A stretch of DNA of 37,299 nucleotides from Fibrobacteria bacterium (GTDB taxonomy: Bacteria > Fibrobacterota > Chitinivibrionia > Chitinivibrionales > FEN-1185): NCBI GenBank assembly GCA_037447435.1, contig JBBIGR010000037.1, forward strand, positions 15,561 to 52,859. The letters run 5' to 3'. Below the pieces are notes generated by a model. The model did not search any database and was not told the origin of the DNA. It worked only from the letters and a program-made list of their open reading frames with translations. The position numbers and the translations under genes were made by a program. Positions 10,043 to 35,692 of the stretch are shown here, piece after piece. Position 1 is the first letter of the stretch, and the number at the start of each line of letters is the position of its first letter.

Positions 10043-11143
10043 TCATGGTATCGGTTGAGTAAAATGCAGCGAATCGCCCCAGGAATTATAGCCGATTTCC
10101 CTGCCGATCGAGGCGATGCGCCGTTCCAAACAGTTTTTGCATTGCAAAGCCGATTCATCCAGGCATGGTTTCCCTTCATAGAGTAAATAATCGTTTCGCA
10201 CCGTTGTCGGCGTCGATTGCGGCATTAAAATATTGGCCCCGAATAAAAGCCCTTTTTCCCTGCCCACCGGATCCATTGCCTGCAATGCCGTCGTAGCGGC
10301 GATATTGACATTTTGCAAAACCAAGCGCGTCACCGCGATCATGTTCAAAGACAATTGCATTATTTCGTCGCGACGACCAGCGGTCTCATCTTTATATACG
10401 GCCATCGGGGTTGCTTCGTGAACGATATACGGCCCCATGCCGATCATGGCAACGTCCATGGCTTTAAAAAACAGAATATCATCGGCAAGTTCTTCAAGGG
10501 TTTGCGTCGGCAACCCGATCATCACGCCGGTCCCGACCTGAAATCCGATCTGTTTTAATAGTTTCAGGCATTCGATTCGCGATTGCAATTGTTGGGTTTT
10601 CGGATGGATGCATTCGAACAGGCACGGCGTGCTCGACTCAATCCGAAGCAAATAGCGATGAGCACCAGCCTCAAAAAAGCGTCTGTACGTTTTTTCGGAT
10701 TGTTCTCCTACGCAAAGCGTTATGCCGACGCCGTGGGGAGAATCCGGCGATTTTGTTTCCCGCTTTATCGATCGAACCGTATCTTCAACAAAGGAAATAA
10801 ACTCCTCATCCCGCCTCTCGCCAGACTGTAAAACAACGGAACCATACCCTTGGGCCGCGCAAAACAAAGCCGATTCAAGAATTTCATCTTTCGTCAACAA
10901 AAAACGGCGCACGCCGTGATTCGATTTTCGTATGCCGCAGTAATTGCAATCGCATACGCAGTGGTTCGAAAATTCGATAAGCCCTCTAAAATACACTTTT
11001 TTCCCGCAATGTTTAAGCAGCGTATTCTCGGCGGCCGATCGCAATTGTTCGATATCCCGCGGCTCCCGAAGTCGCAAGAGCGATACGATATCGCCGCGGG
11101 AATATTCTTTTTTGGCAAGTATGTCGTTTATTGCTTTTTTCAT
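10043..11143 (-). CDS. hydE: [FeFe]-hydrogenase H-cluster radical SAM maturase HydE
   Basis: RGLIEFSNHCVCDCNYC, GAHRYLLRIES, GTGVMIGLP, C-terminal YEGKPC. ATG 11143 lies 4 nt after the hydG stop. Confidence 0.93.
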   Translation of the reverse strand: MKKAINDILAKKEYSRGDIVSLLRLREPRDIEQLRSAAENTLLKHCGKKVYFRGLIEFSNHCVCDCNYCGIRKSNHGVRRFLLTKDEILESALFCAAQGYGSVVLQSGERRDEEFISFVEDTVRSIKRETKSPDSPHGVGITLCVGEQSEKTYRRFFEAGAHRYLLRIESSTPCLFECIHPKTQQLQSRIECLKLLKQIGFQVGTGVMIGLPTQTLEELADDILFFKAMDVAMIGMGPYIVHEATPMAVYKDETAGRRDEIMQLSLNMIAVTRLVLQNVNIAATTALQAMDPVGREKGLLFGANILMPQSTPTTVRNDYLLYEGKPCLDESALQCKNCLERRIASIGREIGYNSWGDSLHFTQPIP

Positions 11144-11147
11144 AGGT

Positions 11148-12626
11148 CTAAAAAAACAAATCCCGTTCCCCTGTTTTTGTCCGTGTATAGTTTTCCATGA
11201 ACGAGTCGAATACATGCGGCATCTTGATTTTAATTTCCGCAATCTCGTTTTCAATGATTTTTTCCCCGGCGCGTCGGGTTTGGTCGGTTGCAAAATCGTC
11301 AAGCCATTCCCGATAGGTTATGACCGCATTGAGCTTGCAAAACTTTCCCTCCTGACCGCTCCTCAGCAGGTCCATGATGCATTTACCGGTGCGACCGCAC
11401 CGGTATCCCGCGGTACAAAACGAAGTGATATTGCCCATTGCCGCAAGGTCGCGTATCAAATCGTCAAGTGTCCGCGTGTCGCCGAGAATGAATTGTTGCC
11501 GGTCCGGTTGTTGCGGTTTCAAGTCGCTATACGCGCCGAGCCCGACTTGCGAAGATGCGTCCATCTGCGTAATGCCGAGCGGAATCAAACTGTCGCGCAT
11601 CGCCGCGTTTTCCCGCGCTGTCAATATCATGCCGGCATACGGGATTGCAAGCCGCAGTACGACGATCGCACGCCTGAATTCAGCATCGCTGATTTTATGG
11701 GGAATTGCAATCGATAACGGCGTGGTCTCGGCGGGCTCGATCCGGGGAAACGAAATGGTATGCGGACCGATGCCGAACTGCTTTTCAAGCTCGATCGCAT
11801 GGTGCAACATGCCCATGACCTCGAATTTCCAATCGTAAAGACCGAACAGGGAGCCGATTCCGACATCGTCGATTCCGGCTTCGAGCGCGCGATGCATGCA
11901 ATACAACCGCCACGCATAATCTCCTTTCAAGGTGTTTTTGGGATGCATGGCGGCATAGGTCTTATGGTGATAGGTTTCCTGGAACACCTGAAACGTTCCA
12001 ATGCCAGTTTCGTGGAGAATGCGCAAATCCTCAACCGACATTGGAGCGGCATTGACATTGACGCGTCTGATCGACCCCTTTCCGTTTTTCGTTTTCATCG
12101 AAACCGAATATATCGTTTTAAGGGTTTCGGCAATGTATTGGGTGTCCGATGCAGGATGTTCGCCATAAACGGCAATAAGCCGTTTATGCCCGATTGTCCC
12201 TGCCAAAACCTCGGTTTCGCTTCGGACCTGGTCCTGGGTCAAAACACCGCGTTTCATTCCCGTATTTTCGCTGCGGAGTCCGCAATAGGCGCAATTATTG
12301 ACACATTGCGTACTCATGTACAGCGGCGCAAAGGTGACAATACGGTTGTCATACACTTTTTTCTTGATTTCAAGCGCGGCATTTTCCATTTCAGCAACAA
12401 GATCAGGATCGGTTACCCGCATCAAAACAGCGGTTTCTTGAGGCGACAATGTTTCAACGGCCAGCGATTTTTTCAAGATCTCCCGTATGTATACGGGGTC
12501 CGGGACCAATGCATTTTGAAGCATTTTTTCAATTACATCGTCATCGATGAAATCCCGCCCATGGGCCAGGTATTTGTCCCGCTGGTCACGAGGGATTCTG
12601 TTTTTAAGCCAGGTTTGTGTCGTCAT
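11148..12626 (-). CDS. hydG: [FeFe]-hydrogenase H-cluster radical SAM maturase HydG
   Basis: FAPLY..CVNNCAYC, FQETYH, GIDDVGIG, GPHTISFPR; auxiliary-cluster motif Cx5Cx19C. Confidence 0.96.
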   Translation of the reverse strand: MTTQTWLKNRIPRDQRDKYLAHGRDFIDDDVIEKMLQNALVPDPVYIREILKKSLAVETLSPQETAVLMRVTDPDLVAEMENAALEIKKKVYDNRIVTFAPLYMSTQCVNNCAYCGLRSENTGMKRGVLTQDQVRSETEVLAGTIGHKRLIAVYGEHPASDTQYIAETLKTIYSVSMKTKNGKGSIRRVNVNAAPMSVEDLRILHETGIGTFQVFQETYHHKTYAAMHPKNTLKGDYAWRLYCMHRALEAGIDDVGIGSLFGLYDWKFEVMGMLHHAIELEKQFGIGPHTISFPRIEPAETTPLSIAIPHKISDAEFRRAIVVLRLAIPYAGMILTARENAAMRDSLIPLGITQMDASSQVGLGAYSDLKPQQPDRQQFILGDTRTLDDLIRDLAAMGNITSFCTAGYRCGRTGKCIMDLLRSGQEGKFCKLNAVITYREWLDDFATDQTRRAGEKIIENEIAEIKIKMPHVFDSFMENYTRTKTGERDLFF

Positions 12627-13887
12627 TGTATACGTCCTTTTTATATTGTTGTCGGGAGCGGGTAAAAGCGTCCAGGGCCGCCGGAAACGGGGCCAACACC
12701 CGGTGCACGACGCCCTGGATAAACGATATGCATAATCCGTAATTGGTGATCGGCGTATTGGCCTGCTTGGCCGTCAAAAGCCTTGCTTGCGTTTCATTTC
12801 TTGTCAACATGCACGATCCGCAATGGACAATAAGCGAATAGTCCGAAAGGTTATCGGGAAAATCCCTGCCGCTGTATACATCTATGTGCAAATCGAGTCC
12901 CGTGTACTGGCGAAGCCAACGGGGGATTTTTACCCTGCCGATATCGTCGGCCAACGCATGATGGGAACAAGCTTCGGCAACGAGGATTTTGTCGCCCAGT
13001 TTCAGGGAATCGATAATTGCCAAACCCTGGGCCTGCAATTGCAAATCGCCTTTATTCCGCGAAAAAAGAATCGAAAACGTGGTACAGGGTATGTCCGCGG
13101 GAGTATCGGCCACCACTTTCAACACGACCTGTGAATCGCATACGACAAGATCTGGCTTTACGTTCAGTTTTGTAAGCAGGTCCGCATATTCCCGTTCCTT
13201 TACAACAACGACAGACGCGTCGTTGTCCAAGGTATCCCGGATGGTTTGTACTTGGGGCAGGATCAACCGTCCTTTGGGGGCTTGCAAATCAATCGGTACA
13301 ACCAGGACCACTACCCCGCCCGGCGGCACCAAATCGCCGACAATTGCCAATTCGCCGTCACCGGAATTTTTCAAACTTTGGGCAATAAGGTTCCTAAATT
13401 CCGTTTCACTCTTTTCACGCGAGTCCGCATCGGCGCACGAACACAGCATGACGTACGGCGATTTCTTTTTGCAAAGGTCCACAAATTCCGGCAATGGCGC
13501 GGCAATGTCCGTTTTATTAATGACAAGGACGCACGCGCACCCGCGTTTTGCAGCCTGTTCGATGAGCGAATCCTCAAAGCCGGTCCACCTTCCGCTCTCG
13601 ACCACAATGACAAAAATATCTGCCCGGGCATATGCCGACAGCGTTTTTTTCATGCGCGCCTCTGCCAAGGCCGACGCGTCGTCGATTCCTGCAGTGTCAA
13701 GAAGCACCACGGGGCCAACGGGTAAAAGCTCCATGGTTTTTTCCACAATATCCGTGGTGGTTCCTGCCAAAGGAGAAATGACGGACACATCCTGGCCGAC
13801 CAGATAATTGAGAAGGCTCGACTTCCCGACATTGGTGCGTCCGAAAAACCCTATCTGCTTCCGTAACGATTTCGGCGTTTTTTCCAT
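12604..13887 (-). CDS. hydF: [FeFe]-hydrogenase maturation GTPase HydF
   Basis: GRTNVGKSS, GTTTD, DTAG, NKTD, APKGRLILPQ, EACSHH, HCGSC. Start ATG 13887 lies 4 nt after the aspA stop. Confidence 0.96.
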   Translation of the reverse strand: MEKTPKSLRKQIGFFGRTNVGKSSLLNYLVGQDVSVISPLAGTTTDIVEKTMELLPVGPVVLLDTAGIDDASALAEARMKKTLSAYARADIFVIVVESGRWTGFEDSLIEQAAKRGCACVLVINKTDIAAPLPEFVDLCKKKSPYVMLCSCADADSREKSETEFRNLIAQSLKNSGDGELAIVGDLVPPGGVVVLVVPIDLQAPKGRLILPQVQTIRDTLDNDASVVVVKEREYADLLTKLNVKPDLVVCDSQVVLKVVADTPADIPCTTFSILFSRNKGDLQLQAQGLAIIDSLKLGDKILVAEACSHHALADDIGRVKIPRWLRQYTGLDLHIDVYSGRDFPDNLSDYSLIVHCGSCMLTRNETQARLLTAKQANTPITNYGLCISFIQGVVHRVLAPFPAALDAFTRSRQQYKKDVYNDDTNLA

Positions 13888-13891
13888 TATG

Positions 13892-15286
13892 TTACTTTCG
13901 TATCGGCAAAGGTTTACCGTGATGACCGAGCGACATGAGACTTTGCGGCGAAAGCACCGTGTCGACCAGTTTTTTTCCGAGATTGTTTTCCAAAAACGTC
14001 CTGAAAAGAGGTTCATTGCTTTTTTCAAATTCTTTCACCAGACATTCCGCCTTATCATACCCGATATGGGGCAAAAACGCGGTAATTATGGTGGCGCTTT
14101 GGTTAACATGCCGCAAACAGGCCTGTTCGTCCGCACTTATATTGGCCGCGTGAGCGGCCAATATAAGATTGGCATTGCATAAAAGGCCGATCGCTTCCAT
14201 GAGCGATTGGCCCAAAAGCGGCAAGAATTCGTTTATTTGCAAAGTTCCCATTGCCGAGGTTTCATTGACAATATTGAGCAATGCCTGCACCTTGACCGAA
14301 ACACCGATAACCGCTTCACAAACGACCGGATTGATTTTCCCCGGCATGATGGACGACCCGGCCTGCACGGAAGGCAAGCGGATGTCGCCGATCGAATGCA
14401 GCAGCCGAAGATCGTTGCAGATTTTCCGGAGGTTTGCGGCATGCGCGCCAAGAATGCCCGCAACCTCGGAAAAGGCATCGGCATTCGCGGTTTGGTCCAT
14501 CGGGTTCTCGGCCCTGCAAAGACCTTGCCCCGTAATGGCCCGTAATTTCTCGATTACCAAAAAGATATAGCTTTTGGGCGCAGTCAGTCCCGTCCCTATT
14601 GCGGTTCCGCCGATATTGACAATGCGCAATCTTTCTTCGCATTTGAAGGTACGCCACCGGTCCCGGCTTATCGCCTCGGCAAAACAGGAAAATTGGGCGC
14701 CGAGCGTCATGGGTACCGCATCGGCCAGTTCGGTACGGCCCATGGTCACAATCGAAGCAAATTCTTTTTCCTTTGTCTGCATCGCGTCCTGCACCGCCGT
14801 GATCGCACCGTTTAATTGCCGAATCCCGTTTATGGCGGCAATTTTTAGCGCCGTTGGATACACATCGTTCGTAGACTGATGTAAATTGACATGCTCGATG
14901 GGATGAAGTACGGAATAGTTACCCTTGGGATGTCCTAAAATCTCAAGCGCCCTGTTTGCGATCACTTCGTTGATGTTCATATTCGTCGATGTCCCTGCAC
15001 CACCCTGCATGGCGTCGACGGGAAACTGTCCGGATAATTTTCCCGCAGCGACGTCGTCGCAGGCCGATCCTATAGCGTTTGCAAACGATTCCCCGAAATA
15101 ACCGAGTTCCTTGTTTGTTTCGCAACAGGCTTTTTTCACCATTGCCAATGCCGTCAGAATCGACGGGTGAACCCCGGTCGTGGAAAAAGGAAAATTGGCA
15201 ACCGCGCGTTGGGTATGAATGCCCCAATAGGCCGGAAGGGGAATTTCCAAAGCACCGATCACATCGTGTTCGATCCGGGTTTCCAT
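13892..15286 (-). CDS. aspA: Aspartate ammonia-lyase (fumarase/aspartase superfamily), hyd-associated
   Basis: YWGIHTQRA, QGGAGTSTNMN.NEV, QSTND.YPT, signature GSSIMPGKINP. Confidence 0.85.
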   Translation of the reverse strand: METRIEHDVIGALEIPLPAYWGIHTQRAVANFPFSTTGVHPSILTALAMVKKACCETNKELGYFGESFANAIGSACDDVAAGKLSGQFPVDAMQGGAGTSTNMNINEVIANRALEILGHPKGNYSVLHPIEHVNLHQSTNDVYPTALKIAAINGIRQLNGAITAVQDAMQTKEKEFASIVTMGRTELADAVPMTLGAQFSCFAEAISRDRWRTFKCEERLRIVNIGGTAIGTGLTAPKSYIFLVIEKLRAITGQGLCRAENPMDQTANADAFSEVAGILGAHAANLRKICNDLRLLHSIGDIRLPSVQAGSSIMPGKINPVVCEAVIGVSVKVQALLNIVNETSAMGTLQINEFLPLLGQSLMEAIGLLCNANLILAAHAANISADEQACLRHVNQSATIITAFLPHIGYDKAECLVKEFEKSNEPLFRTFLENNLGKKLVDTVLSPQSLMSLGHHGKPLPIRK

Positions 15287-15293
15287 GGCGGTT

Positions 15294-15548
15294 TCAACTT
15301 TCTTTTTTACTGAGCATTGATTTTACGGAAACGCCTTCGACGGCACCGAGTTTTCCGGTCATGGAGCCGATTTGATCGGAGGTGGCATCGACGACGAGTA
15401 CGATGACCGATTGCAGATCCCTGACATGCGGAACGCCGGTCCGTACCACGATCATGTCGCCGAATTCCGACAAAATCTTATTGACTTCGTCAGCGTTTTT
15501 TTTCCTGTTTTCAACAATGATGCCGACAAATCCGACTCTTTTTTCCAT
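15294..15548 (-). CDS. TM1266-family iron-only hydrogenase system putative regulator (ACT/NikR-C-like)
   Basis: 'MEKRVGFVGIIVE...VNKILSEF...IVVRTGVP...TGKLG...GVSVKS'; GGAG RBS 6 nt before ATG; sits ahead of the maturation genes. Confidence 0.85.
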   Translation of the reverse strand: MEKRVGFVGIIVENRKKNADEVNKILSEFGDMIVVRTGVPHVRDLQSVIVLVVDATSDQIGSMTGKLGAVEGVSVKSMLSKKES

Positions 15549-15560
15549 ACGCAACTCCAC

Positions 15561-15610
15561 AAAAAAAAATCCCGTCTTTTATCGCGGATATCCTGCGGCA
15601 AAAGACGGGA
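15561..15610 (-). terminator. Intrinsic terminator between hydA and the maturation genes, probably conditional
   Basis: Minus strand TCCCGTCTTTT-N19-AAAAGACGGGA followed by T9. Confidence 0.85.
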
Positions 15611-15701
15611 CAGTAAGTGAACTTCCCTATATACTCTTATGCCCTTGGTCGCAGGGCTTTGGCCCCTTGCCGCAGGTACTCTGTGCTATCGAAATTAAAC
15701 G
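15561..15701 (-). promoter_or_regulatory. Candidate transcription attenuator / riboswitch-like leader
   Basis: Upstream CCTGCGGCAA(GGG) is complementary to (CTT)TTGCCGCAGG in the terminator loop and 5' arm, making the two structures mutually exclusive. Confidence 0.6.
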
Positions 15702-17447
15702 TTATCTCTTATATTCCGGTTTCGGCTTATACTCCGTGTGCAACAGCTTTTCGGCTGTTTCGCCAAGCGGTTCGCCGATGAAATCCTTATATACTTTTTT
15801 GACAAATGGATTTTCATGCGAATACCGGATGGTGTGGGCCTCATCGTCCTTATATAAGCCCAAACCGCGCTTGACGCGCAATTCATCGGTAACGCCGTAC
15901 GGCTGCCCGCCGCCACCGACGCATCCGCCCGGACAAGCCATGACTTCGATGAAATGATACGGCAGCTCTTCGCCTTTGGCCTTTGCCTGGCGTACTTTAT
16001 CGATGACGAATTCCACATTGCTGAGTCCGTGCGCCACCGCGACTTTGACCGTATGATTGCCCACCGGGATCGTCCCTTCCTTGACACCTGCTAGCCCTCG
16101 GACGTTTTCGAACTCGACGTTTTTCAATTTTCCGCCGGTCACGTAGTCGTACGCGGTTCGTAGCGCCGCTTCCATGACGCCGCCGGTCGCGCCGAAAATC
16201 GTTCCGGCCCCGGTATATTCGCCAAGAATGTGGTCGGATTCCTCATCGGGCAACGTTTCGAAATCGATTCCGGCCTGTTTTATCATCCGGGCCAATTCAC
16301 GAGTGGTGATAGACACGTCGACGTCCTGGTTTCCCGATGCGAACATGTCTTCCGATCGTTTGATTTCGATCTTTTTTGCCGTGCACGGCATCACAGCGGC
16401 AATGAATATATTTGCCGGATCGAGACGTCGCTTGCGCGCATAATACGTTTTGGTCAATACGCCCACAATTTGCTGCGGCGATTTACACGACGAAAAATGG
16501 CCGACCATGTCGGGATGGAATTTTTCCATAAAATCAACCCATGCCGGGCAGCAACTCGTGATAAGCGGCAGTTTTTCCTGTTTTTTTGTAAACCGGTGTA
16601 CGAATTCGTTTGCTTCCTCGACAATGGTCACATCGGCGCCGAAATTGGTGTCGAACACGGCCTTAAACCCCATACGGCGCAATGCCGCATATAATTTACC
16701 CGTGCAATTCTCGCCGATTGGAAACCCGAAGGCTTCCCCTATAGCAACGCGCACCGCGGGTGCGATCTGAATAACGCAGTATTTTTTAGCGTCCGCCAAT
16801 GCGCCCCACACCTTTGCGGTCTCGTCGTTTTCGAAAATCGCGCCGGTCGGGCAATGCGCGGAACATTGTCCGCAATTGACACACGGCGAATCGGCAAGCG
16901 AAATGTCGCCGGCGGGCGAGACTCTGGTGTCGATGCCGCGTTCCATCATGGACAGCGCCCAAACGTTCTGCATCTTCTGACACACTTGTATACAACGGCC
17001 GCAAGAAATGCATTTACGAGACTCTAAAACGATGGCGCCGGTCGACGAATCGGCGGGAATGGTCGGTAAATGTTGCGGGAACGATTCGCGTCTGATGCCG
17101 AAATCGGCGGCGAGCTTTTGCAATTCGCAATTCTGATTTCTGCCGCAGGTCAGGCATTCGTTGGGATGTTTCGACAAAATCAACTCAATGACCGATCGCC
17201 GCACTTCGACGATTTCCGGATCCTGCGTCGTGATATCCATGTTTTCTTCAATGGGCGTGCAACAGGCGCGCAGCATCTTGTTCGACCCCTTGAGCTTTAC
17301 AATACATATTCCGCATGCCGCAGTGGCGGGCAAATCCGGATGCTTGCACAGAGTCGGGATTTTTATTTGTACCTTTTGTGCAGCCTCAAGGATGCTTGTT
17401 CCTTCGGGAACCGAAACGATGATACCATTTATCTTTGCATTTACCAT
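15702..17447 (-). CDS. hydA: Multimeric (group A3) [FeFe]-hydrogenase catalytic subunit HydA/HndD
   Basis: H-cluster motifs ITSCCPAW, VMPCTAKK.E, EVMACPGGCVGGGGQP; N-terminal 2Fe-2S, His-ligated (HPNECLTC) and 2x[4Fe-4S] domains. Confidence 0.97.
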   Translation of the reverse strand: MVNAKINGIIVSVPEGTSILEAAQKVQIKIPTLCKHPDLPATAACGICIVKLKGSNKMLRACCTPIEENMDITTQDPEIVEVRRSVIELILSKHPNECLTCGRNQNCELQKLAADFGIRRESFPQHLPTIPADSSTGAIVLESRKCISCGRCIQVCQKMQNVWALSMMERGIDTRVSPAGDISLADSPCVNCGQCSAHCPTGAIFENDETAKVWGALADAKKYCVIQIAPAVRVAIGEAFGFPIGENCTGKLYAALRRMGFKAVFDTNFGADVTIVEEANEFVHRFTKKQEKLPLITSCCPAWVDFMEKFHPDMVGHFSSCKSPQQIVGVLTKTYYARKRRLDPANIFIAAVMPCTAKKIEIKRSEDMFASGNQDVDVSITTRELARMIKQAGIDFETLPDEESDHILGEYTGAGTIFGATGGVMEAALRTAYDYVTGGKLKNVEFENVRGLAGVKEGTIPVGNHTVKVAVAHGLSNVEFVIDKVRQAKAKGEELPYHFIEVMACPGGCVGGGGQPYGVTDELRVKRGLGLYKDDEAHTIRYSHENPFVKKVYKDFIGEPLGETAEKLLHTEYKPKPEYKR

Positions 17448-17450
17448 TTT

Positions 17451-19193
17451 TTATCTCCTCGTGACTGCGTCGAATTTGCATACTTCAAAACAATTACCGC
17501 ATTTGATGCATTTTGCCTGGTCTATCGTATAACCGGTTTCGCGATCGCCCGAAATGCAATTGACCGGGCAATTCTTTACGCACAATTTGCATCGTTTGCA
17601 CACGGAGGCAACGATTTCGAAATTCAATAATTTCGCGCATTTACCTGCGCGGCATTTCTTGTCTACAATGTGTTGACGGTACTCTTCCTCAAAGTATTTG
17701 AGCGTGGAAACAATGGGATTGGGGGCCGACTGCCCGAGCGCGCACAGAGAAGCCTTTTGCATTGCCTGCGCAATTCGCTTCAACGTTTCGATATCTGCCG
17801 GTTCACCTTTTCCCTCGGAGATTTTTTCCAATACCTTGAGCATTTGAAAGCCTCCGATGCGGCACGGCGCACATTTTCCGCACGATTCGTCGACGCAAAA
17901 TCCGAGATAAAATTTTGCGATATCGACAAGGCAATCGTCTTGATCCATGACAATCATTCCGCCGGAACCCATGATGGAACCGAGTTCCTGCAAATGTTCA
18001 TACGATACCGGCGTGTCAAGGAATTTTTCAGGGATAACGCCTCCCGAAGGTCCGCCCGTTTGAACCGCGAGTATTTTCTTGCCGTCCGCAACGCCGCCGC
18101 CGATTTCTTCGATGATGGTCCGTAGCGAGGTTCCCATGGGAATTTCGATCAAACCGGAATTGCGGATTTTCCCGGTAAGCGCAAAGACCTTGGTCCCTTT
18201 GGATTTATCGGTCCCGATCTGGGAAAAATCCTTTCCGCCCTTTAGCAGAATATAGGAGACGTTGGCCAAGGTTTCCACATTGTTAATTATGGTCGGTTTG
18301 CCCCACAGGCCGACATCCGACGGATACGGCGGGCGCGGACGAGGCGTGCCGCGTTTACCCTCAATAGAGGCAATGAGCGCGGTTTCTTCGCCGCACACGA
18401 ATGCCCCGGCACCGAGCCGGACCTCAAGGTCGAAACAAAATTTTGTCCCTAAAATACCATTGCCGAGCAATCCTTTTTCATACGCCTGATCCAGGGCTTT
18501 TTGAATGCGCTTAATTGCCAAAGGATATTCTGCTCTAATGTAAAGGAACCCTTTCGTCGCGCCGATGCAATAACCGGCGATCATCATTCCTTCCAAAACG
18601 CAATGCGGGTCACCTTCCAAAACGCTTCGGTCCATGTAGGCGCCCGGATCACCTTCGTCCCCGTTGCATATGACGTATTTCTGGGCATTGAACGAATTGC
18701 GGGCCATGGTCCATTTGAGCCAGGTCGGATACCCGGCGCCGCCGCGACCGCGTAAACCGCTGGTTTTGATTTCTTCGATTGTTTTTTCCGGCGTCAAATC
18801 GAACAGGGCCCGTTTGATGCCCTGATATCCGCGAATTGCGATATACTCGTCTATGCTTTCCGGATTGACCACGCCGCAATTCCGCATGACTATTCTCACC
18901 TGTTCATTGCCTCCCCGATGCAATTTGGCATCCAGGGTTTTGCCTTGACGGATAGTCTCCGAAATTATCGCGTCCATGTCGGTCTCGGTGACGTCGACAT
19001 AAACGATGCCTTGGGGCAACAATTTCGCCACAACGCCTTTATTGTATATGCCGAGGTCGGCGGCACGTACGATCTGGACCGAATCGGCGAGTCCGGCACT
19101 TTTCACTTTTTCTGCAAAGATGTCATGCGCGTCGCGCGTCCGTCCGAGACCTTCCGCATTTGTATCTTTTATCAACACTACGGTAGTCGTCAT
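17451..19193 (-). CDS. hydB: NuoF-like FMN/NADH-binding subunit HydB/HndC
   Basis: GLRGRGGAGYPT, NGDEGDPGAYMDR, FVCGEETAL, ESCGKCAPCR..SLCALG, HIVDKKCRAGKC, C-terminal 2x[4Fe-4S]. Confidence 0.95.
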   Translation of the reverse strand: MTTTVVLIKDTNAEGLGRTRDAHDIFAEKVKSAGLADSVQIVRAADLGIYNKGVVAKLLPQGIVYVDVTETDMDAIISETIRQGKTLDAKLHRGGNEQVRIVMRNCGVVNPESIDEYIAIRGYQGIKRALFDLTPEKTIEEIKTSGLRGRGGAGYPTWLKWTMARNSFNAQKYVICNGDEGDPGAYMDRSVLEGDPHCVLEGMMIAGYCIGATKGFLYIRAEYPLAIKRIQKALDQAYEKGLLGNGILGTKFCFDLEVRLGAGAFVCGEETALIASIEGKRGTPRPRPPYPSDVGLWGKPTIINNVETLANVSYILLKGGKDFSQIGTDKSKGTKVFALTGKIRNSGLIEIPMGTSLRTIIEEIGGGVADGKKILAVQTGGPSGGVIPEKFLDTPVSYEHLQELGSIMGSGGMIVMDQDDCLVDIAKFYLGFCVDESCGKCAPCRIGGFQMLKVLEKISEGKGEPADIETLKRIAQAMQKASLCALGQSAPNPIVSTLKYFEEEYRQHIVDKKCRAGKCAKLLNFEIVASVCKRCKLCVKNCPVNCISGDRETGYTIDQAKCIKCGNCFEVCKFDAVTRR

Positions 19194-19196
19194 GGT

Positions 19197-19547
19197 TTAT
19201 CTCCTCACCGGCATATCGACAATAAAGTCCTGAACGAGTCTTTTGTCTCTGACATGTTCTTCCAAAATTCTCAAAGCAATGTCGGGTGTCACGCGACCGT
19301 ATACGACGCTGGGCAGCCCCTCTGCAGAAACTTCGACAAGCGGTTCGGCATGGCAGGAGCCGCTGCATCCGCACGGTTTGACTGCGATATCGATTTTTCG
19401 CTTCTCCGCTTCGGTTTTAAAAACTTTAAAAACCTCGTCGGCACCGGCTGCGACGCCGCAGGAACTCATTCCCACCTTTATATACGGGCGATTGGCGCTC
19501 TGCTTTGCGCTTGCGGCATCCAGGTCCTCTTTAGTAAGTTTGGTCAT
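19197..19547 (-). CDS. hydD: Thioredoxin-like [2Fe-2S] ferredoxin subunit HydD/HndB
   Basis: VGMSSCGVAAGA, CGCSGSCHAEPLVEV, YGRVTP; GAGGA RBS before ATG 19547. Confidence 0.85.
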   Translation of the reverse strand: MTKLTKEDLDAASAKQSANRPYIKVGMSSCGVAAGADEVFKVFKTEAEKRKIDIAVKPCGCSGSCHAEPLVEVSAEGLPSVVYGRVTPDIALRILEEHVRDKRLVQDFIVDMPVRR

Positions 19548-19549
19548 GA

Positions 19550-20026
19550 TCAATCCTCATTTTTATATTTGGAAATGATTTCCACTATTTGGCTTTTTTT
19601 GACTTTACTGTATATTTTATCGTTTATCATTATGACCGGAGCCAATCCGCAACAACCCAGGCATCGCACCGCGTCCAATCGGAAAAGGCCGTCAGGCGTG
19701 GTCTGACCTTCCTCAATATTAAGCAGGTCTTTTAATGCGTCTAATATTTCAGGCGCACCTTTTAGGTAACAAGCGGTTCCCATGCACACGGCAATGTTAT
19801 ATTTGCCGGGCCGTTCGAGTTTGAAATAATTGTAAAACGTAATGACTTCATAAATACACGCCAACGGCACATCCAATGCTTTGGAAAGGCTCAGCGCAAC
19901 CTCTCTGGGTATATAGCCGAAATGTCCCTGTATTTCATGCAGGATCATTATCAAATTTCCATCGCGACCCTTCCATTTTTCTGCAATTGCAGTCACCTGG
20001 TCTTGGACAGTTGTGGTTGAATTCAT
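19550..20026 (-). CDS. hydC: NuoE-like [2Fe-2S] subunit HydC/HndA
   Basis: LIMILHEIQ..FGY, VITFY, VCMGTAC, RCLGCCGLAP. Confidence 0.95.
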   Translation of the reverse strand: MNSTTTVQDQVTAIAEKWKGRDGNLIMILHEIQGHFGYIPREVALSLSKALDVPLACIYEVITFYNYFKLERPGKYNIAVCMGTACYLKGAPEILDALKDLLNIEEGQTTPDGLFRLDAVRCLGCCGLAPVIMINDKIYSKVKKSQIVEIISKYKNED

Positions 20027-20113: not shown

Positions 20114-20131
20114 TTGTGTGTTATTTCACAA
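20114..20131. promoter_or_regulatory. Rex operator 1, downstream of the hyd promoter
   Basis: TTGTGTG-TTAT-TTCACAA versus consensus TTGTGAA-N4-TTCACAA. Confidence 0.8.
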
Positions 20132-20165
20132 TAACTCGCACATAAACCTAACATAATTCCCTCTA

Positions 20166-20194
20166 AATATATGTGTTTTTCCAAAAATAGTCAA
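20166..20194 (-). promoter_or_regulatory. Sigma-70-type promoter of the hyd operon
   Basis: Minus strand TTGACT-N17-TATATT. Confidence 0.7.
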
Positions 20195-20200
20195 TATTTT

Positions 20201-20218
20201 TTGTGAATTAAATAACAT
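20201..20218. promoter_or_regulatory. Rex operator 2, just upstream of the hyd -35
   Basis: TTGTGAA-TTAA-ATAACAT. Confidence 0.7.
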
Positions 20219-20308
20219 TAATTATTTTATTTTATCCAATATTCGCCGAGAAATCGTATTGGTTTCGGCAAATTTCCTATAAAAAAGCCAAAACGAAACA
20301 AAATTGTT

Positions 20309-20326
20309 TTGTGAAATTAGGAACAT
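20309..20326. promoter_or_regulatory. Weaker Rex operator 3, just upstream of the rex -35
   Basis: TTGTGAA-ATTA-GGAACAT. Confidence 0.5.
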
Positions 20327-20331
20327 TATAT

Positions 20332-20360
20332 TTGACAAAGTCGTGGATTACGTTTATATT
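20332..20360 (+). promoter_or_regulatory. Sigma-70-type promoter of rex
   Basis: TTGACA-N17-TATATT. Confidence 0.75.
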
Positions 20361-20385
20361 ACTATATTGAATAAGGTTTCTATTA

Positions 20386-20403
20386 TTGTGAGAAAGATAA
20401 CAA
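20386..20403. promoter_or_regulatory. Rex operator 4, overlapping the rex translation initiation region
   Basis: TTGTGAG-AAAG-ATAACAA ending 1 nt before the rex ATG. Confidence 0.7.
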
Positions 20404-20404
20404 C

Positions 20405-21037
20405 ATGATTAGCAATAAAAATTGCATAATCCGTTTATCAAAGTACAAAAACGCATTGGTCAGGTTTAAAACCCTGGGCTTTATAAAAATATTCTCAGAA
20501 TATCTTGCCGATGCCGTCGGAGTGACCTCTGCTCAGGTTCGCAAGGATTTTTCCCTTTTCGGTATATCGGGGAATAAACGCGGCGGGTATCAAATCGATG
20601 CATTAATTACAAAACTGAACAGCATTCTTGGGAAAAACGAGATTCAAAACGTGGTTCTCGTCGGTGCCGGACAATTGGGGTCTGCCTTGGTCAGATATAA
20701 CAGTTTTGAAAAAGAAGGCATTAAAATAAGCGCGGCATTTGATATCGACCCTGCCAAAATAACCGCAGGAGCGAAAAATTCGGTTCCGGTGTTGCCGCTC
20801 GACGAGGCGATTAAATTCATTCAAAAAAACAATATCAAAATTGCCATCCTCACGGTTCCGGATGTTGCCGCACAGCAAACCTTCGACATTCTCATGGCCG
20901 CGGGCATAAAAGGCGTGCTTAATTTTGCGCCCATCGAATTGAAAGCGCCGTCCGACTGTATTGTCAATAATGTCAATCTGGCGGTCGAGCTCGAAAACCT
21001 TATATACTTTGTAAACGCTTCGTTAAAAACGGATTAG
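20405..21037 (+). CDS. rex: Redox-sensing transcriptional repressor Rex
   Basis: RLSKY, S..LA...GVTSAQVRKDFS.FG..G.RG.GY, VGAGQLG.AL, FDIDP, GVLNFAP. Confidence 0.96.
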   Translation: MISNKNCIIRLSKYKNALVRFKTLGFIKIFSEYLADAVGVTSAQVRKDFSLFGISGNKRGGYQIDALITKLNSILGKNEIQNVVLVGAGQLGSALVRYNSFEKEGIKISAAFDIDPAKITAGAKNSVPVLPLDEAIKFIQKNNIKIAILTVPDVAAQQTFDILMAAGIKGVLNFAPIELKAPSDCIVNNVNLAVELENLIYFVNASLKTD

Positions 21038-33200: not shown

Positions 33201-34028
33201 ATGAAGAATATTTTCGAATACAATAATTACCGGACATTCCTTAAGGACTACTACGAGGAACGAAAAGAACGGGAAGGTTATACATACCGTGACTTTTCGC
33301 AGGAAACCGGCATGAATTCTTCTTCATGGCTTATGCATTTAATTCGCGGGACTAAAAATCTTTCCCTCGACACGACCGCTCGCATTGCAAATTCTCTCCG
33401 TTTCAATAAACATGAAATCGAATATTTCGAGTTCTTGGTCCAGTTTACTCAGGCGGAAAGCAACCAATCAAAAAATCTTTTCTTCAACAAAATGCTCGAT
33501 GTCAAGAAAAAGCTCAAAATAATCCGCATTGGTGAAGAACAATACGAATATTATACGAAATGGTATTACCCCGTTGTCCGGTCTTTAGTCTCAAAAGTGA
33601 AATGGGACGATAATTTCTCCGTACTTGCGAAAGCGCTGTTACCTGCGATCACACCGGGTGAAGCGAAAAAGGCTGTTGCGCTTTTGGTAAAATTAAACTT
33701 TATTGAAAAAAAGTCAGACGGCGCATGGGTACAGAAATCGGAAGTCATCACCACGGGCGACGAAGTAATGTCGCTCAACATTGTCAATTATCACAAGCAG
33801 GTGACAAAATTAGCGGAAGACGCTTTCGATCGGACCGGCCCAAAGCGTCGCGACATTTCCTCCCTGACTATGGGAATCAATAAGGCAGATTTTCAGCAAA
33901 TCAAATCCAAAATACAGCTGTTCCGCAAGGAAATAATGGAAATTGCCCGGGCTTCCGAAAACGCCGACAGAGTTTACCAGCTCAATTTTCAGTTCTTTCC
34001 GGTAAGTCAATCTGAGGATGAAGAATGA
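33201..34028 (+). CDS. TIGR02147-family protein (N-terminal HTH plus DUF4423-like domain)
   Basis: 'IFEY.NYR.FLKDYY...YRDF...G..S...G.KNLS', 'YY.KWY.PVVR', 'RDISSLT', 'VYQLNFQFFP'. Confidence 0.85.
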   Translation: MKNIFEYNNYRTFLKDYYEERKEREGYTYRDFSQETGMNSSSWLMHLIRGTKNLSLDTTARIANSLRFNKHEIEYFEFLVQFTQAESNQSKNLFFNKMLDVKKKLKIIRIGEEQYEYYTKWYYPVVRSLVSKVKWDDNFSVLAKALLPAITPGEAKKAVALLVKLNFIEKKSDGAWVQKSEVITTGDEVMSLNIVNYHKQVTKLAEDAFDRTGPKRRDISSLTMGINKADFQQIKSKIQLFRKEIMEIARASENADRVYQLNFQFFPVSQSEDEE

Positions 34029-35692
34029 TCCCGAAGCATAAAACCTTTATTCTCCTGCTGTCGGCAATGTCATGCGTACTACTAATCCGCTGCACGAAAG
34101 CTCCGCTGGCAGGCGATGTAACCGAAACCGGAAACGCAACAGTTGCCGGTCTCATACTGGATACCAAACAATATCCCGCCCGCAACACGGTCGTCCGCCT
34201 TATCCCTGAAAATTATGATCCGGTTAAAGATGCGGCGCTTCCCGAAACTTTGTCCGACACAACCGACCAATATGGCCGTTTCAGCATATCGACGAAACGT
34301 TCCGGAAAATTCAACATCATTGCATCCTGCGACAAAGACACGACTGGCGCATTTGTAAAATGCGTTGAACTGAGACCCGACGATACGACCCAGTCCCCCA
34401 CCGGTTTTTTGACGCATTGCGGGGCGATTTCGGTACAAAATCCGTTAAATGCCGATTCAACTTCCGGGTACATTTATATCCAAGGTTCGCCGTTTTTTAA
34501 CCGGCTGGATCATAACCCCGTTGTACCTGTCATCGTTTCCAATATTCCGGCGTGTACCACCACCTCCGTTTACTATTCCGAACAATCGGAAGCGGGCACT
34601 ACGGTTCTTATGGCCAAATGCGTAGTCACAAAGGCGCATGATACCGTGGAGATCACCAGGCTTAACAGAGGCGAAAATTTACTTATAGGTATAGACGATC
34701 AGACAAAAAGTTACGACGTCCTCAAGCGGAATAAATCTTTGTTCAGTTTCCAAGTCGGGTATTCCAATAATAACGCCGGGCTTGGAGGAAATTATTCAAG
34801 AATCCATATGCCGTTTATTTTAACGAAAATCAGCCAAAGCGATTCGCTTGGACTTCGCCCTGCTTTCGCATTGCAGGGGTTCAGCGAAACATCTTTTGAT
34901 TCCATAAAAAATCAATTCACAGACAACTATTTTATGGCAAATTATTATCGGAGCTACATCGAAGCGATGACTGCTCTAAAGGGCAAAAACGCCGTAATAA
35001 TTCTCGAACCGTATACGCTGGCGTTCTACGCGCAACGTGCAAATTTATACCCCGCAACATGTTTACCCGGTATGGAACCGGTTATGGTCAACAATTGCGG
35101 CATTGTGGAAAATCAGAATTTTGCAAATACATTTGTCGGTTTCATCCAGGCATTAGTTCATCATACCCATTCTATCGCACCCGATGCTACTATAGGTTTT
35201 TATCTGGTCAACTGGGCCCTTTATACGAGTAACTCGGCCCAGGAGCTTGTGTATTGGCCAAAGGCAGATCAAACGGCAAATGTCGATGCGTGGAAGGGGT
35301 TTCTGGATCAACTTTCTGTAATGAACGATATCGACTTCCTCAGTTTTGGAAAAGCCAAAACCGATGCCGGCCTCACCGGGCAATCATCATCATATTGGAC
35401 TTCAGTGCAATTAACCAGTTATCTTTCCTATTGTAACATGCTTCATCAAAAGTTCAATAAGCCTCTGGTGGGATGGTTATTGCCTATCGGGCATATGGGT
35501 TTGCCAAACACTCAATTCAGGTATGAAGACACCTTTGTCGAGTATTTTTTTGCAAACAGGCAATCATTTTCCGATGCCGGTTTTACCGCAATGTTGTTTG
35601 GAAAAAACAATCCTTCAGGCACCGACTTATCCGATTCCGCTGGAATTGGCGATGACGGTTGGTTCATCAATAAGTTGAAAAATCAAAATTAA
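34025..35692 (+). CDS. Lipoprotein with carboxypeptidase-regulatory-like beta-sandwich and C-terminal glycoside-hydrolase-like domain
   Basis: ATGA overlap with upstream gene; lipobox-like LIR-C; 'AG..TETGN', 'DTTDQYGRF'. The C-terminal barrel-like region ('IILEP', 'W.LPIGH', 'LFG', 'DDGWF') is a low-confidence assignment. Confidence 0.65.
   Translation: MIPKHKTFILLLSAMSCVLLIRCTKAPLAGDVTETGNATVAGLILDTKQYPARNTVVRLIPENYDPVKDAALPETLSDTTDQYGRFSISTKRSGKFNIIASCDKDTTGAFVKCVELRPDDTTQSPTGFLTHCGAISVQNPLNADSTSGYIYIQGSPFFNRLDHNPVVPVIVSNIPACTTTSVYYSEQSEAGTTVLMAKCVVTKAHDTVEITRLNRGENLLIGIDDQTKSYDVLKRNKSLFSFQVGYSNNNAGLGGNYSRIHMPFILTKISQSDSLGLRPAFALQGFSETSFDSIKNQFTDNYFMANYYRSYIEAMTALKGKNAVIILEPYTLAFYAQRANLYPATCLPGMEPVMVNNCGIVENQNFANTFVGFIQALVHHTHSIAPDATIGFYLVNWALYTSNSAQELVYWPKADQTANVDAWKGFLDQLSVMNDIDFLSFGKAKTDAGLTGQSSSYWTSVQLTSYLSYCNMLHQKFNKPLVGWLLPIGHMGLPNTQFRYEDTFVEYFFANRQSFSDAGFTAMLFGKNNPSGTDLSDSAGIGDDGWFINKLKNQN

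Follow-up and report, generated by a model that had tools for sequence, protein, structure and literature searches.

A conserved leader hairpin upstream of [FeFe]-hydrogenase maturation genes as a probable attenuator, proposed to be controlled by the TM1266 protein family

Cofactor riboswitches of the OFF type, such as the cobalamin riboswitch, control regulons in which biosynthesis of the cofactor is combined with its import through TonB/ABC systems, and a pseudo-symmetric RNA is compatible with a small ligand, as in the c-di-AMP riboswitch. The T-box leader exceeds 200 nt and has a long stem I with a specifier loop as well as the T-box bulge, and the standard kink-turn places a 3-nt bulge 5' of tandem G-A/A-G pairs between two stems. 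Concerning RNAs that are read by proteins, the available portion of PMC4347634 describes PyrR as a ligand-activated protein that stabilises an anti-antiterminator and turns expression OFF, TRAP as a ligand-activated oligomer that reads repeated RNA units, and the ANTAR target as two tandem stem-loops that cause antitermination upon binding; likewise, the available portion of PMC1865079 describes L20 as autoregulating its own operon via attenuation. For [FeFe]-hydrogenases, little has been described, apart from Rex, of how the level of maturases is adjusted to demand. The Rex regulon of C. thermocellum includes hydG and a TM1266 homologue, and an RNA element is not mentioned in the available part of that study (PMC8457756). 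TM1266 has been labelled a 'putative regulator' since its structure was deposited; it is found in databases as a putative iron-only hydrogenase regulator, or as a CopG-family regulator in some sources, and no function is assigned to it in the papers that we found.

We analyzed a window of 37,299 nucleotides from a Fibrobacteria bacterium, whose minus strand carries, in order, NuoE-like, ferredoxin-like and NuoF-like genes, hydA, a 153-nt gap, and the genes for TM1266, aspA, hydF, hydG and hydE. The NuoE-like, 2Fe-2S ferredoxin-like and NuoF-like subunit genes (17451..20026) form the head of an operon shared with hydA (15702..17447), a group A6 NADH-dependent [FeFe] hydrogenase (NF040763, 798 bits over 765). 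Beyond the gap, the TM1266-family protein of 84 aa (15294..15548; TIGR03959 96.2 bits over the cut-off of 60.8, PF21699 94.3 over 27) is followed by aspA, encoding aspartate ammonia-lyase and lying 3' of the terminator (13892..15286; NF008909, 541 bits over 510), hydF (12604..14028, longest open frame, family match from residue 50; TIGR03918, 503 bits over 325.55), hydG (11148..12626; TIGR03955, 441 bits over 312.15) and hydE (10043..11302, longest open frame, family match from residue 58; TIGR03956, 332 bits over 254.6). The Rex redox-sensing repressor is encoded divergently from this operon on the plus strand (20405..21037; NF003996, 238 bits over 138). The divergent promoter region contains three matches (20114-20131, 20201-20218 and 20386-20403) to a palindrome pattern that we take to be Rex-type; three of the seven matches in the window thus cluster at 20114-20403, with 2.6 expected over the whole window. 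The named records closest to the TM1266 gene are from Fibrobacterota. AspA is presented as the ammonium source for the H-cluster bridge in the available part of PMC11736057. Elsewhere on the plus strand, we observed NuoD-like and NuoI/NuoB-like genes at 3-2270, 8 kb from the FeFe cluster, which probably close a group 4 NiFe-hydrogenase-related operon, and a TIGR02147-family (Fibrobacter paralogous) gene at 33201-35692 that overlaps a 555-aa frame without NCBIfam match.

A first, sequence-only reading had described the leader between hydA and TM1266 (15701-15561, minus strand) as an uncatalogued terminator/antiterminator switch placed before the maturation genes and downstream of the Rex-linked operon, and this description holds. 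The intrinsic terminator (15561..15611) consists of an 11-13-bp basal stem, including the 11-bp stem originally reported (15610-15600/15580-15570), an upper stem and a U9 tract (15569-15561), with a folding energy of -25.6 kcal/mol (z -6.4) that was matched by 0/200 shuffles. The U tract lies 12 nt from the TM1266 ATG at 15548, and a GGAG ribosome-binding site (15555..15558) is located 6 nt 5' of this ATG, at which homologues begin with a matching Met. A promoter scan listed no minus-strand promoter-like site between 18277 and 12322, in agreement with the earlier remark that none is evident from the terminator to the ribosome-binding site. Because of this absence and of the 12-nt spacing, TM1266-aspA-hydFGE probably depend on read-through. 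On the plus strand, a 9-of-12 promoter-like match (15607-15635) runs antisense across the hairpin, in the chance range (28 found, 18 expected).

The predicted antiterminator was equally present. Its 5' strand (15667..15676) forms 10 Watson-Crick pairs with 15601-15592, a length reached by 0/300 shuffles of the 5' 60 nt (best 9), and the anticipated extension of this pairing is predicted to reach 15 bp. Its 3' strand (15592..15611) overlaps the 5' arm and the upper stem of the terminator and showed a pairing probability of at least 0.99 in the full-length ensemble. The same 5' bases also belong to the 5' side of a conserved 35-nt hairpin (15642..15676), located 25 nt after the hydA stop codon, which we regard as the anti-antiterminator and the predicted binding site; this copy scored 39.8 bits (E 2e-6) with our model R1, of whose training set it is part. 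The hairpin comprises a lower module (15676-15672 with 15646-15642), a central 2-bp helix (15671-15670 with 15648-15647), an upper module (15668-15665 with 15654-15651) and a variable cap stem-loop (15664-15655). It was this element that led us to revise the sensor initially proposed, namely two small competing hairpins. Both of them can form where they had been placed, but the first is merely the top of the 35-nt hairpin, which contains the 'antiterminator' strand, and the second is a by-product of internal symmetry, at least 3 such pairs being possible in 161/184 copies. Both AGAGUA repeats are there as well, but they appear incidental, since they adjoin the motif in 1/184 copies per side, the window copy being among the 184.

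In the predicted folding order, the hairpin is the best structure until the 5' side of the terminator has been transcribed, and the antiterminator is the best thereafter. Over the whole leader, the antiterminator fold (-46.6 kcal/mol) was more stable than the fold with the terminator forced (-42.5 kcal/mol), which restores the hairpin. Since the hairpin initially folds and then yields to the antiterminator, the predicted default is read-through, suggesting a leader that would be ON unless the hairpin is held folded, which would turn it OFF.

TM1266 loci were gathered from relatives, GTDB and metagenomes (210, of which 177 remained after removal of duplicates). A strict pattern was present in 92/177 upstream regions, against 0.08 in resampled sequence, and a profile built from these 92 detected the motif in 137/177 regions at E up to 1 (121 below 0.01) and never on the opposite strand. 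A gene-blind scan with the pattern over 52 of the 64 parts of GTDB returned at least 121 loci, 41 of them with 300-nt flanks. Hydrogenase loci accounted for 91/121 matches, at TM1266 (65), hydG (18), hydA (1) or just behind a hydrogenase gene (7). The 30 others had no hydrogenase gene in the flanking DNA; 27 of these, located in stop-free frames of more than 100 codons, were taken as chance. According to their record titles, the gene-blind loci come from Fibrobacterota, Omnitrophota, Verrucomicrobiota, Planctomycetota, Spirochaetota, Desulfobacterota, Atribacterota, Bacillota, Bacteroidota, Elusimicrobia, Caldiserica and TA06. Among genera with cultured members, the motif occurs in records of Moorella (L328), Pseudodesulfovibrio (L255), Maridesulfovibrio (L309) and Solidesulfovibrio (L316).

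When a three-helix model was applied to 114 aligned copies, 91.4% of the cells were paired and we counted 93 double changes, compared to 33.5 after shuffling (0/500). The covariation is found mostly in the cap stem, whose first variable pair was paired in 179/186 copies with five pair types (four poorly parsed rows dropped), and the cap loop varies from 4 to 27 nt between conserved arms. The core is nearly invariant and shows little covariation, with 3 double changes per central pair. In the RNAalifold register, the basal helix is made of C-G and U-G pairs followed by unpaired purine-rich positions, and the hairpin appears as two inverted copies of a module, CUG(A/C) opposite (A/G)AGG, around a 2-4-bp helix. 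Among 250 unique copies, the lower module is conserved as C (100%), U (100%), G (99%) and C (76%) or A (24%), the upper one as C (98%), U (96%), G (91%) and A (90%), and the partner strands as A (78%), A (97%), G (98%), G (100%) and as A (57%) or G (35%), A (98%), G (99%), G (100%), percentages that are upper bounds given a parser and search patterns that reward the consensus. In Bacillota copies, the central helix is swapped for other pairs and both modules are retained.

The antiterminator pairing also recurs in homologous leaders well above shuffled controls. A terminator follows 160/184 homologous copies, at a median of 58 nt downstream, and 24/184 have none. In the folds preceding the terminator, bases of the motif paired with at least 5 bases of the terminator 5' arm or loop in 121/160 copies, compared to 49-65 in five shuffles, and the 5' strand of the motif itself made this pairing in 77/160 (28-40 when shuffled). 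An antiterminator was not predicted in 39/160 copies, and the expression platform, as judged from these folds, is conserved in most copies, not in all.

Several leaders depart from this arrangement. Tandem copies 200-240 nt apart (L416, L417, L418, L420, L424, L427, L428, L429, L430, L433, L434 and L435) sit between the genes for the hydrogenase small subunit and TM1266 in 12/37 motif-positive Desulfovibrionia. In several of them no U-tract terminator is present, and these copies may control translation. The profile missed the Pontiella-type leaders (L061, L074, L075, L082, L156, L160), in which a divergent motif, reduced to its outer module, lies about 80 nt before TM1266 and the terminator is replaced by a hairpin that covers the ribosome-binding site. 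By eye, the Bacillota leaders L490, L497, L501 and L502 show several short hairpins of one module each, arranged in series. At L521, a complete motif variant just before hydG overlaps the ribosome-binding site, which suggests translational control. One genome, G165, has two copies 2.1 kb apart (L408, L411), before a group A6 hydA and before TM1266-hydG. In the genome of the window itself, a second model match (C45, E 0.04) was dismissed, being antisense within a permease-like reading frame.

We compared the distribution of the motif with that of TM1266 and of the maturase HydG, bearing in mind that related genomes are not independent in these counts. In a sample of 151 Fibrobacterota genomes, TM1266 exceeded the cut-off in 37 and HydG in 60. 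Model R1 matched 40/150 genomes at E up to 0.05, of which 34 were TM1266-positive with the motif at hydrogenase genes. The six remaining matches were weak (E 0.004-0.03) and fell in TM1266-less genomes with no HydG over the cut-off; no hydrogenase gene was nearby in the four that were inspected. With filters off, G034 was added, giving 35/37 TM1266-positive genomes with the motif; in the other two, 101 and 264 nt separate TM1266 from the end of its contig. By contrast, the motif was found in 0/25 HydG-positive, TM1266-negative genomes, whether the search covered the whole genome or, with filters off, the 0.8-6 kb preceding hydG. In Fibrobacterota without TM1266, weak matches in the vicinity of hydG (12.9-16.2 bits) were discarded, since those on the hydG strand are located in coding sequence or resemble it and the best one is on the opposite strand. 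Three Fibrobacterota families (f4, f5 and f9) each include genomes of both kinds. The hydG operons without TM1266 may have been acquired by transfer from lineages that never had the motif.

Among 121 Desulfovibrionia, R1 matched 35 of the 54 genomes with TM1266 and, weakly, two others that lack HydG (37 in total), compared to 0/26 HydG-positive genomes without TM1266 (search with filters on). Three more TM1266-positive genomes were added with filters off, and 16/54 remain without detected motif; TM1266 is not always accompanied by the motif. In Bacillota, TM1266 was found in 47 and HydG in 52 of 101 genomes, and clear matches lay upstream of TM1266 at 5/30 loci, with about five more weak but well-placed ones. 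Upstream of hydG, sense-strand matches were observed in 7/11 TM1266-positive Bacillota (13.8-28.8 bits), and the best among nine TM1266-negative ones, five of which were rechecked for TM1266 absence with Pfam, was a 29-nt single-module match of 14.0 bits (L537), a score that overlaps with that of a true-looking copy (L528, 13.8 bits). As most of the copies used to train R1 are close to TM1266, divergent ones in genomes without TM1266 could escape it.

In five Fibrobacterota genomes (G015, G026, G034, G037, G150), in 5/5 genomes of another set and in the 7/11 Bacillota above, TM1266 is unlinked and without a motif of its own, and the motif precedes hydG. The link between the two is therefore not a matter of mere adjacency, and across the genomes compared the motif appears to track TM1266 and not the maturases. 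TM1266 genes in unrelated operons and without leader were seen at L478, L483, L485, L486, L488 and L489, at L334, L335 and L337, and at L017-L019; by eye, the hosts are operons in which TM1266 lies behind cell-division-cluster, sugar-kinase-like or lipid-A-synthase-like genes, with the motif at hydG or hydE elsewhere. At L503:12194-13393 (G162), a trehalose-6-phosphate-phosphatase-like gene follows TM1266; HydE and HydF are encoded elsewhere in that genome and HydG was not found.

The structure model of TM1266 (pLDDT 94) adopts a NikR-metal-binding-domain/ACT-like fold. The fold matches obtained (VIA-align) were 2NZC (Z 15.3), the NikR metal-binding domain (Z 11.7, rmsd 1.7-2.2, 80-83 residues aligned), ACT domains (Z up to 10.8) and ribosomal protein S6 (Z 9.6), a likeness which alone is no proof of function. 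A four-copy assembly was predicted with a score of 0.83, compared to 0.16 for the best control, with at least 94% of the contacts shared between runs and pLDDT of at least 82; the mark used is reached by 20/30 solved homo-pairs and 1/23 single chains, and the prediction is possibly a memory of PDB 2NZC, which has four chains. Across 297 sequences, seven positions are 85-100% K/R, and no conserved Cys/His site was detected, no column exceeding 42% Cys+His. Fusions to a DNA-binding domain were not observed among longer relatives (2 matches in 8000 candidates, a limited basis). As modelled, such a basic-surfaced oligomer would fit a two-fold RNA site, and the basic residues could instead serve an anionic cofactor.

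Overall, the element is very probably a regulated cis-acting RNA of a widespread attenuator family. The comparative data make it moderately probable that attenuation is PyrR-like and exerted by oligomeric TM1266, predicted to bind the leader and likely to sense an H-cluster precursor. With nothing bound, the hairpin would give way to the antiterminator and transcription would read through. Once enough of the [2Fe] subcluster precursor is present, which TM1266 might sense, the oligomer would bind the two inverted modules and keep the 35-nt hairpin folded; the held hairpin would block the antiterminator and allow formation of the terminator, which would turn TM1266-aspA-hydF-hydG-hydE off. Acting under the Rex-controlled upstream promoter, such a switch would set the supply of maturases apart from that of hydrogenase subunits. 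The sequence-only reading had left the input as a ligand or a protein. The motif is not found in HydG-positive, TM1266-negative genomes and persists without HydE, HydF and HydG, and for this reason the comparative data favour an RNA-binding protein, TM1266, more than a leader that itself senses Fe, SAM, Tyr or Cys.

The nature of the signal is suggested by the operons that the motif heads. In G223, G190, G224 and G184, the genomes in which maturase absence was checked (G223 being a single contig), the motif persists and HydE, HydF and HydG were not found, which disfavours a maturase as the binder. At L511:2110-6847 (G223), L512 (G190), L504 (G224), L505 (G184), L463 and L467, a string of hydrogenase genes, motif and TM1266 continues with importer genes, a TonB-dependent receptor with ABC or ExbB-type components. 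These strings are candidates for uptake of an H-cluster precursor. Second motif copies head another operon at L506:4449-11061 (G215), L508:2935-8989 (G237), L509:14770-18250 (G269) and L510:2833-6392 (G248), with a NiFe-large-subunit-like gene, a hydE-type radical SAM gene (268.8 bits over 254.6) and a NifH-like gene, accompanied by two NifD/K-like genes in G215 and G237 and by DsrE or HypD nearby. HydG was not found in these four genomes, and the operon is a candidate HydG-replacing pathway. As one OFF element heads operons that would make, replace and import the same thing, the signal is proposed to be an H-cluster precursor, and the gene content of this regulon suggests end-product control. 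The NikR fold of TM1266 and the presence of NiFe-like genes had pointed to nickel sensing, which we dismissed since TM1266 lacks a His/Cys site and the NiFe-like gene is grouped with hydE. At L426 (G195), L516 (G234), L441 (G221), L442 (G193), L520 (G217), L240, L287 and L316, the motif trails hydrogenase genes with no maturase behind, and the next genes are opposite-strand, or encode a porin or an SbmA/BacA-like transporter. These copies, for which a 3' role or a rearrangement relic is possible, are not explained by attenuation alone.

A riboswitch, the strongest of the alternatives, would account for several of the same observations. The hairpin would then be an aptamer for Fe(CO)(CN)/[2Fe] precursor or a related metabolite, acting as an OFF switch, and TM1266 a co-selected carrier or chaperone. 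The internal-loop bases are near-invariant across many phyla, as in metabolite aptamers, the platform is of the classic OFF type, the regulon spans synthesis, alternative synthesis and TonB/ABC import, and the tandem copies of the Desulfovibrionia would also suit this explanation. We nevertheless consider it rather unlikely, given that the 25 + 26 HydG-positive, TM1266-less genomes make the same cofactor without the motif, and that the motif remains at hydG where TM1266 is unlinked. Furthermore, hairpins reduced to one module, as noticed by eye in leaders of Bacillota, suit a protein site better than a pocket, and the copies behind hydrogenase genes have nothing evident to control. These trailing copies (G195, G234, G221, G193, G217, L240, L287, L316) and the frequent position just behind hydA are what a fixed element would predict, that is, a partial terminator or an RNA-stability or processing signal that keeps a constant hydrogenase:maturase ratio with no regulated input. 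Such an element is improbable in view of its co-occurrence with TM1266, of a predicted default of read-through, of non-canonical loop bases conserved far past the needs of a terminator, and of the many copies that lie, by eye, behind their own promoter-like sequence and not behind hydA.

Binding of the hairpin by another protein, such as HydE, HydF, HydG, apo-HydA or a general binder, e.g., of the L7Ae kink-turn type, has in our view a comparably small chance of being correct. The module, with what we take to be tandem sheared purine pairs, resembles the non-canonical stem of a kink-turn, and a hydrogenase gene adjoins most copies. HydE, HydF and HydG fit poorly with a motif that occurs in the four genomes without detectable maturases and is absent from HydG-positive, TM1266-less ones; HydA could still be a binder. 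As for a kink-turn binder, the standard 3-nt bulge is missing, the 5' spacer being 3-4 nt and the 3' spacer 3-4 nt including the central helix. Least probable of all is a DNA operator for a NikR-like repressor with an incidental hairpin. This would agree with the NikR metal-binding domain as nearest characterised fold and with the CopG-family name given by some sources, but the motif is strictly sense-strand (0/137 reversed), shows G-U pairs and compensatory changes, and tolerates cap loops of 4 to 27 nt between its arms, and TM1266 has neither a DNA-binding domain nor a conserved Cys/His column. PyrR-like attenuation by TM1266 is the reading that we retain.

With regard to novelty, Rfam 15 gave 0 matches at gathering level for the window and 10 homologous loci, and matches at relaxed thresholds were at chance level. 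Described classes were likewise discarded: the whole leader has 141 nt and its conserved part 35 nt, with no Rfam match, unlike a T-box; a single irregular hairpin with an unconserved cap loop, predicted OFF when folded, differs from an ANTAR target; a leader-peptide attenuator disagrees with the lack of AUG/GUG in 15701-15561 and with homologue lengths that differ by single bases; and sheared-pair-like columns are present, yet with a spacing of 0-1 nt on the bulge strand, unlike a standard kink-turn. No description of the RNA was found in the literature covered, with the supplement of PMC11109978 (50 genomes) and most subscription papers outside this scope. A term look-up in the available main texts of PMC11109978, PMC8632094 and PMC7266159 and supplements of PMC8632094 and PMC6429828 returned no hydrogenase motif. 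The attenuator family is widespread among anaerobes of many phyla and apparently undescribed so far. We tentatively suggest, at somewhat below even chances, that the element is the first dedicated sensor of H-cluster supply, with an Fe-CO-CN precursor read by TM1266, which would be a stand-alone NikR-domain/ACT protein that has become an RNA-binding attenuator, or by the RNA itself, and that it marks a regulon with an uncharacterised HydG-replacing operon and an importer of the ready-made precursor.

These results provide a concrete candidate RNA target and mechanism for TM1266. The available text of PMC11216029 raises the question of how maturase-less organisms make active hydrogenase, and the motif offers a gene-finding handle for operons that apparently replace HydG or import the cofactor. 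For biohydrogen production, disruption of the hairpin is predicted to de-repress maturation.

Compared to known systems, the window TM1266 belongs to the same family and has the same fold as PDB 2NZC/TIGR03959/PF21699 and the NikR metal-binding domain, but it differs from NikR as a single domain of 84 aa with no ribbon-helix-helix, no conserved His/Cys nickel site and a proposed RNA target. With the cofactor OFF riboswitches (cobalamin, Moco/Tuco, TPP, SAM), the leader shares a conserved aptamer-like core before a terminator, that is, a conserved structured element joined to an expression platform; it differs by a motif of 35 nt only, the lack of an Rfam match and a presence tied to one protein family. 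As in protein-mediated attenuators, anti-antiterminator, antiterminator and terminator are mutually exclusive in the predicted folds, and a dedicated small regulator co-occurs with the motif (35/37 vs 0/25; 35/54 vs 0/26). Protein-dependent premature termination would be shared with TRAP and L20 of B. subtilis, but these differ from a leader without a run of NAG triplets, with a structured double-module site and with a hydrogenase cofactor regulon. PyrR attenuation in the B. subtilis pyr operon (RF00515) shares a small irregular hairpin upstream of the antiterminator/terminator pair, a regulator gene that is often the first after the leader, and several copies in some operons. It differs in sequence, as the window scores 19.6 against a gathering threshold of 54 (E 1.7, aligned mainly to the terminator), and in context, as the motif lies at hydrogenase genes (91/121) and the 36 frames scanned downstream of it include no pyr gene. 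It also differs in its parts: the leader motif described here has two inverted modules, and the candidate protein is a putative binder of NikR-domain/ACT-like fold.
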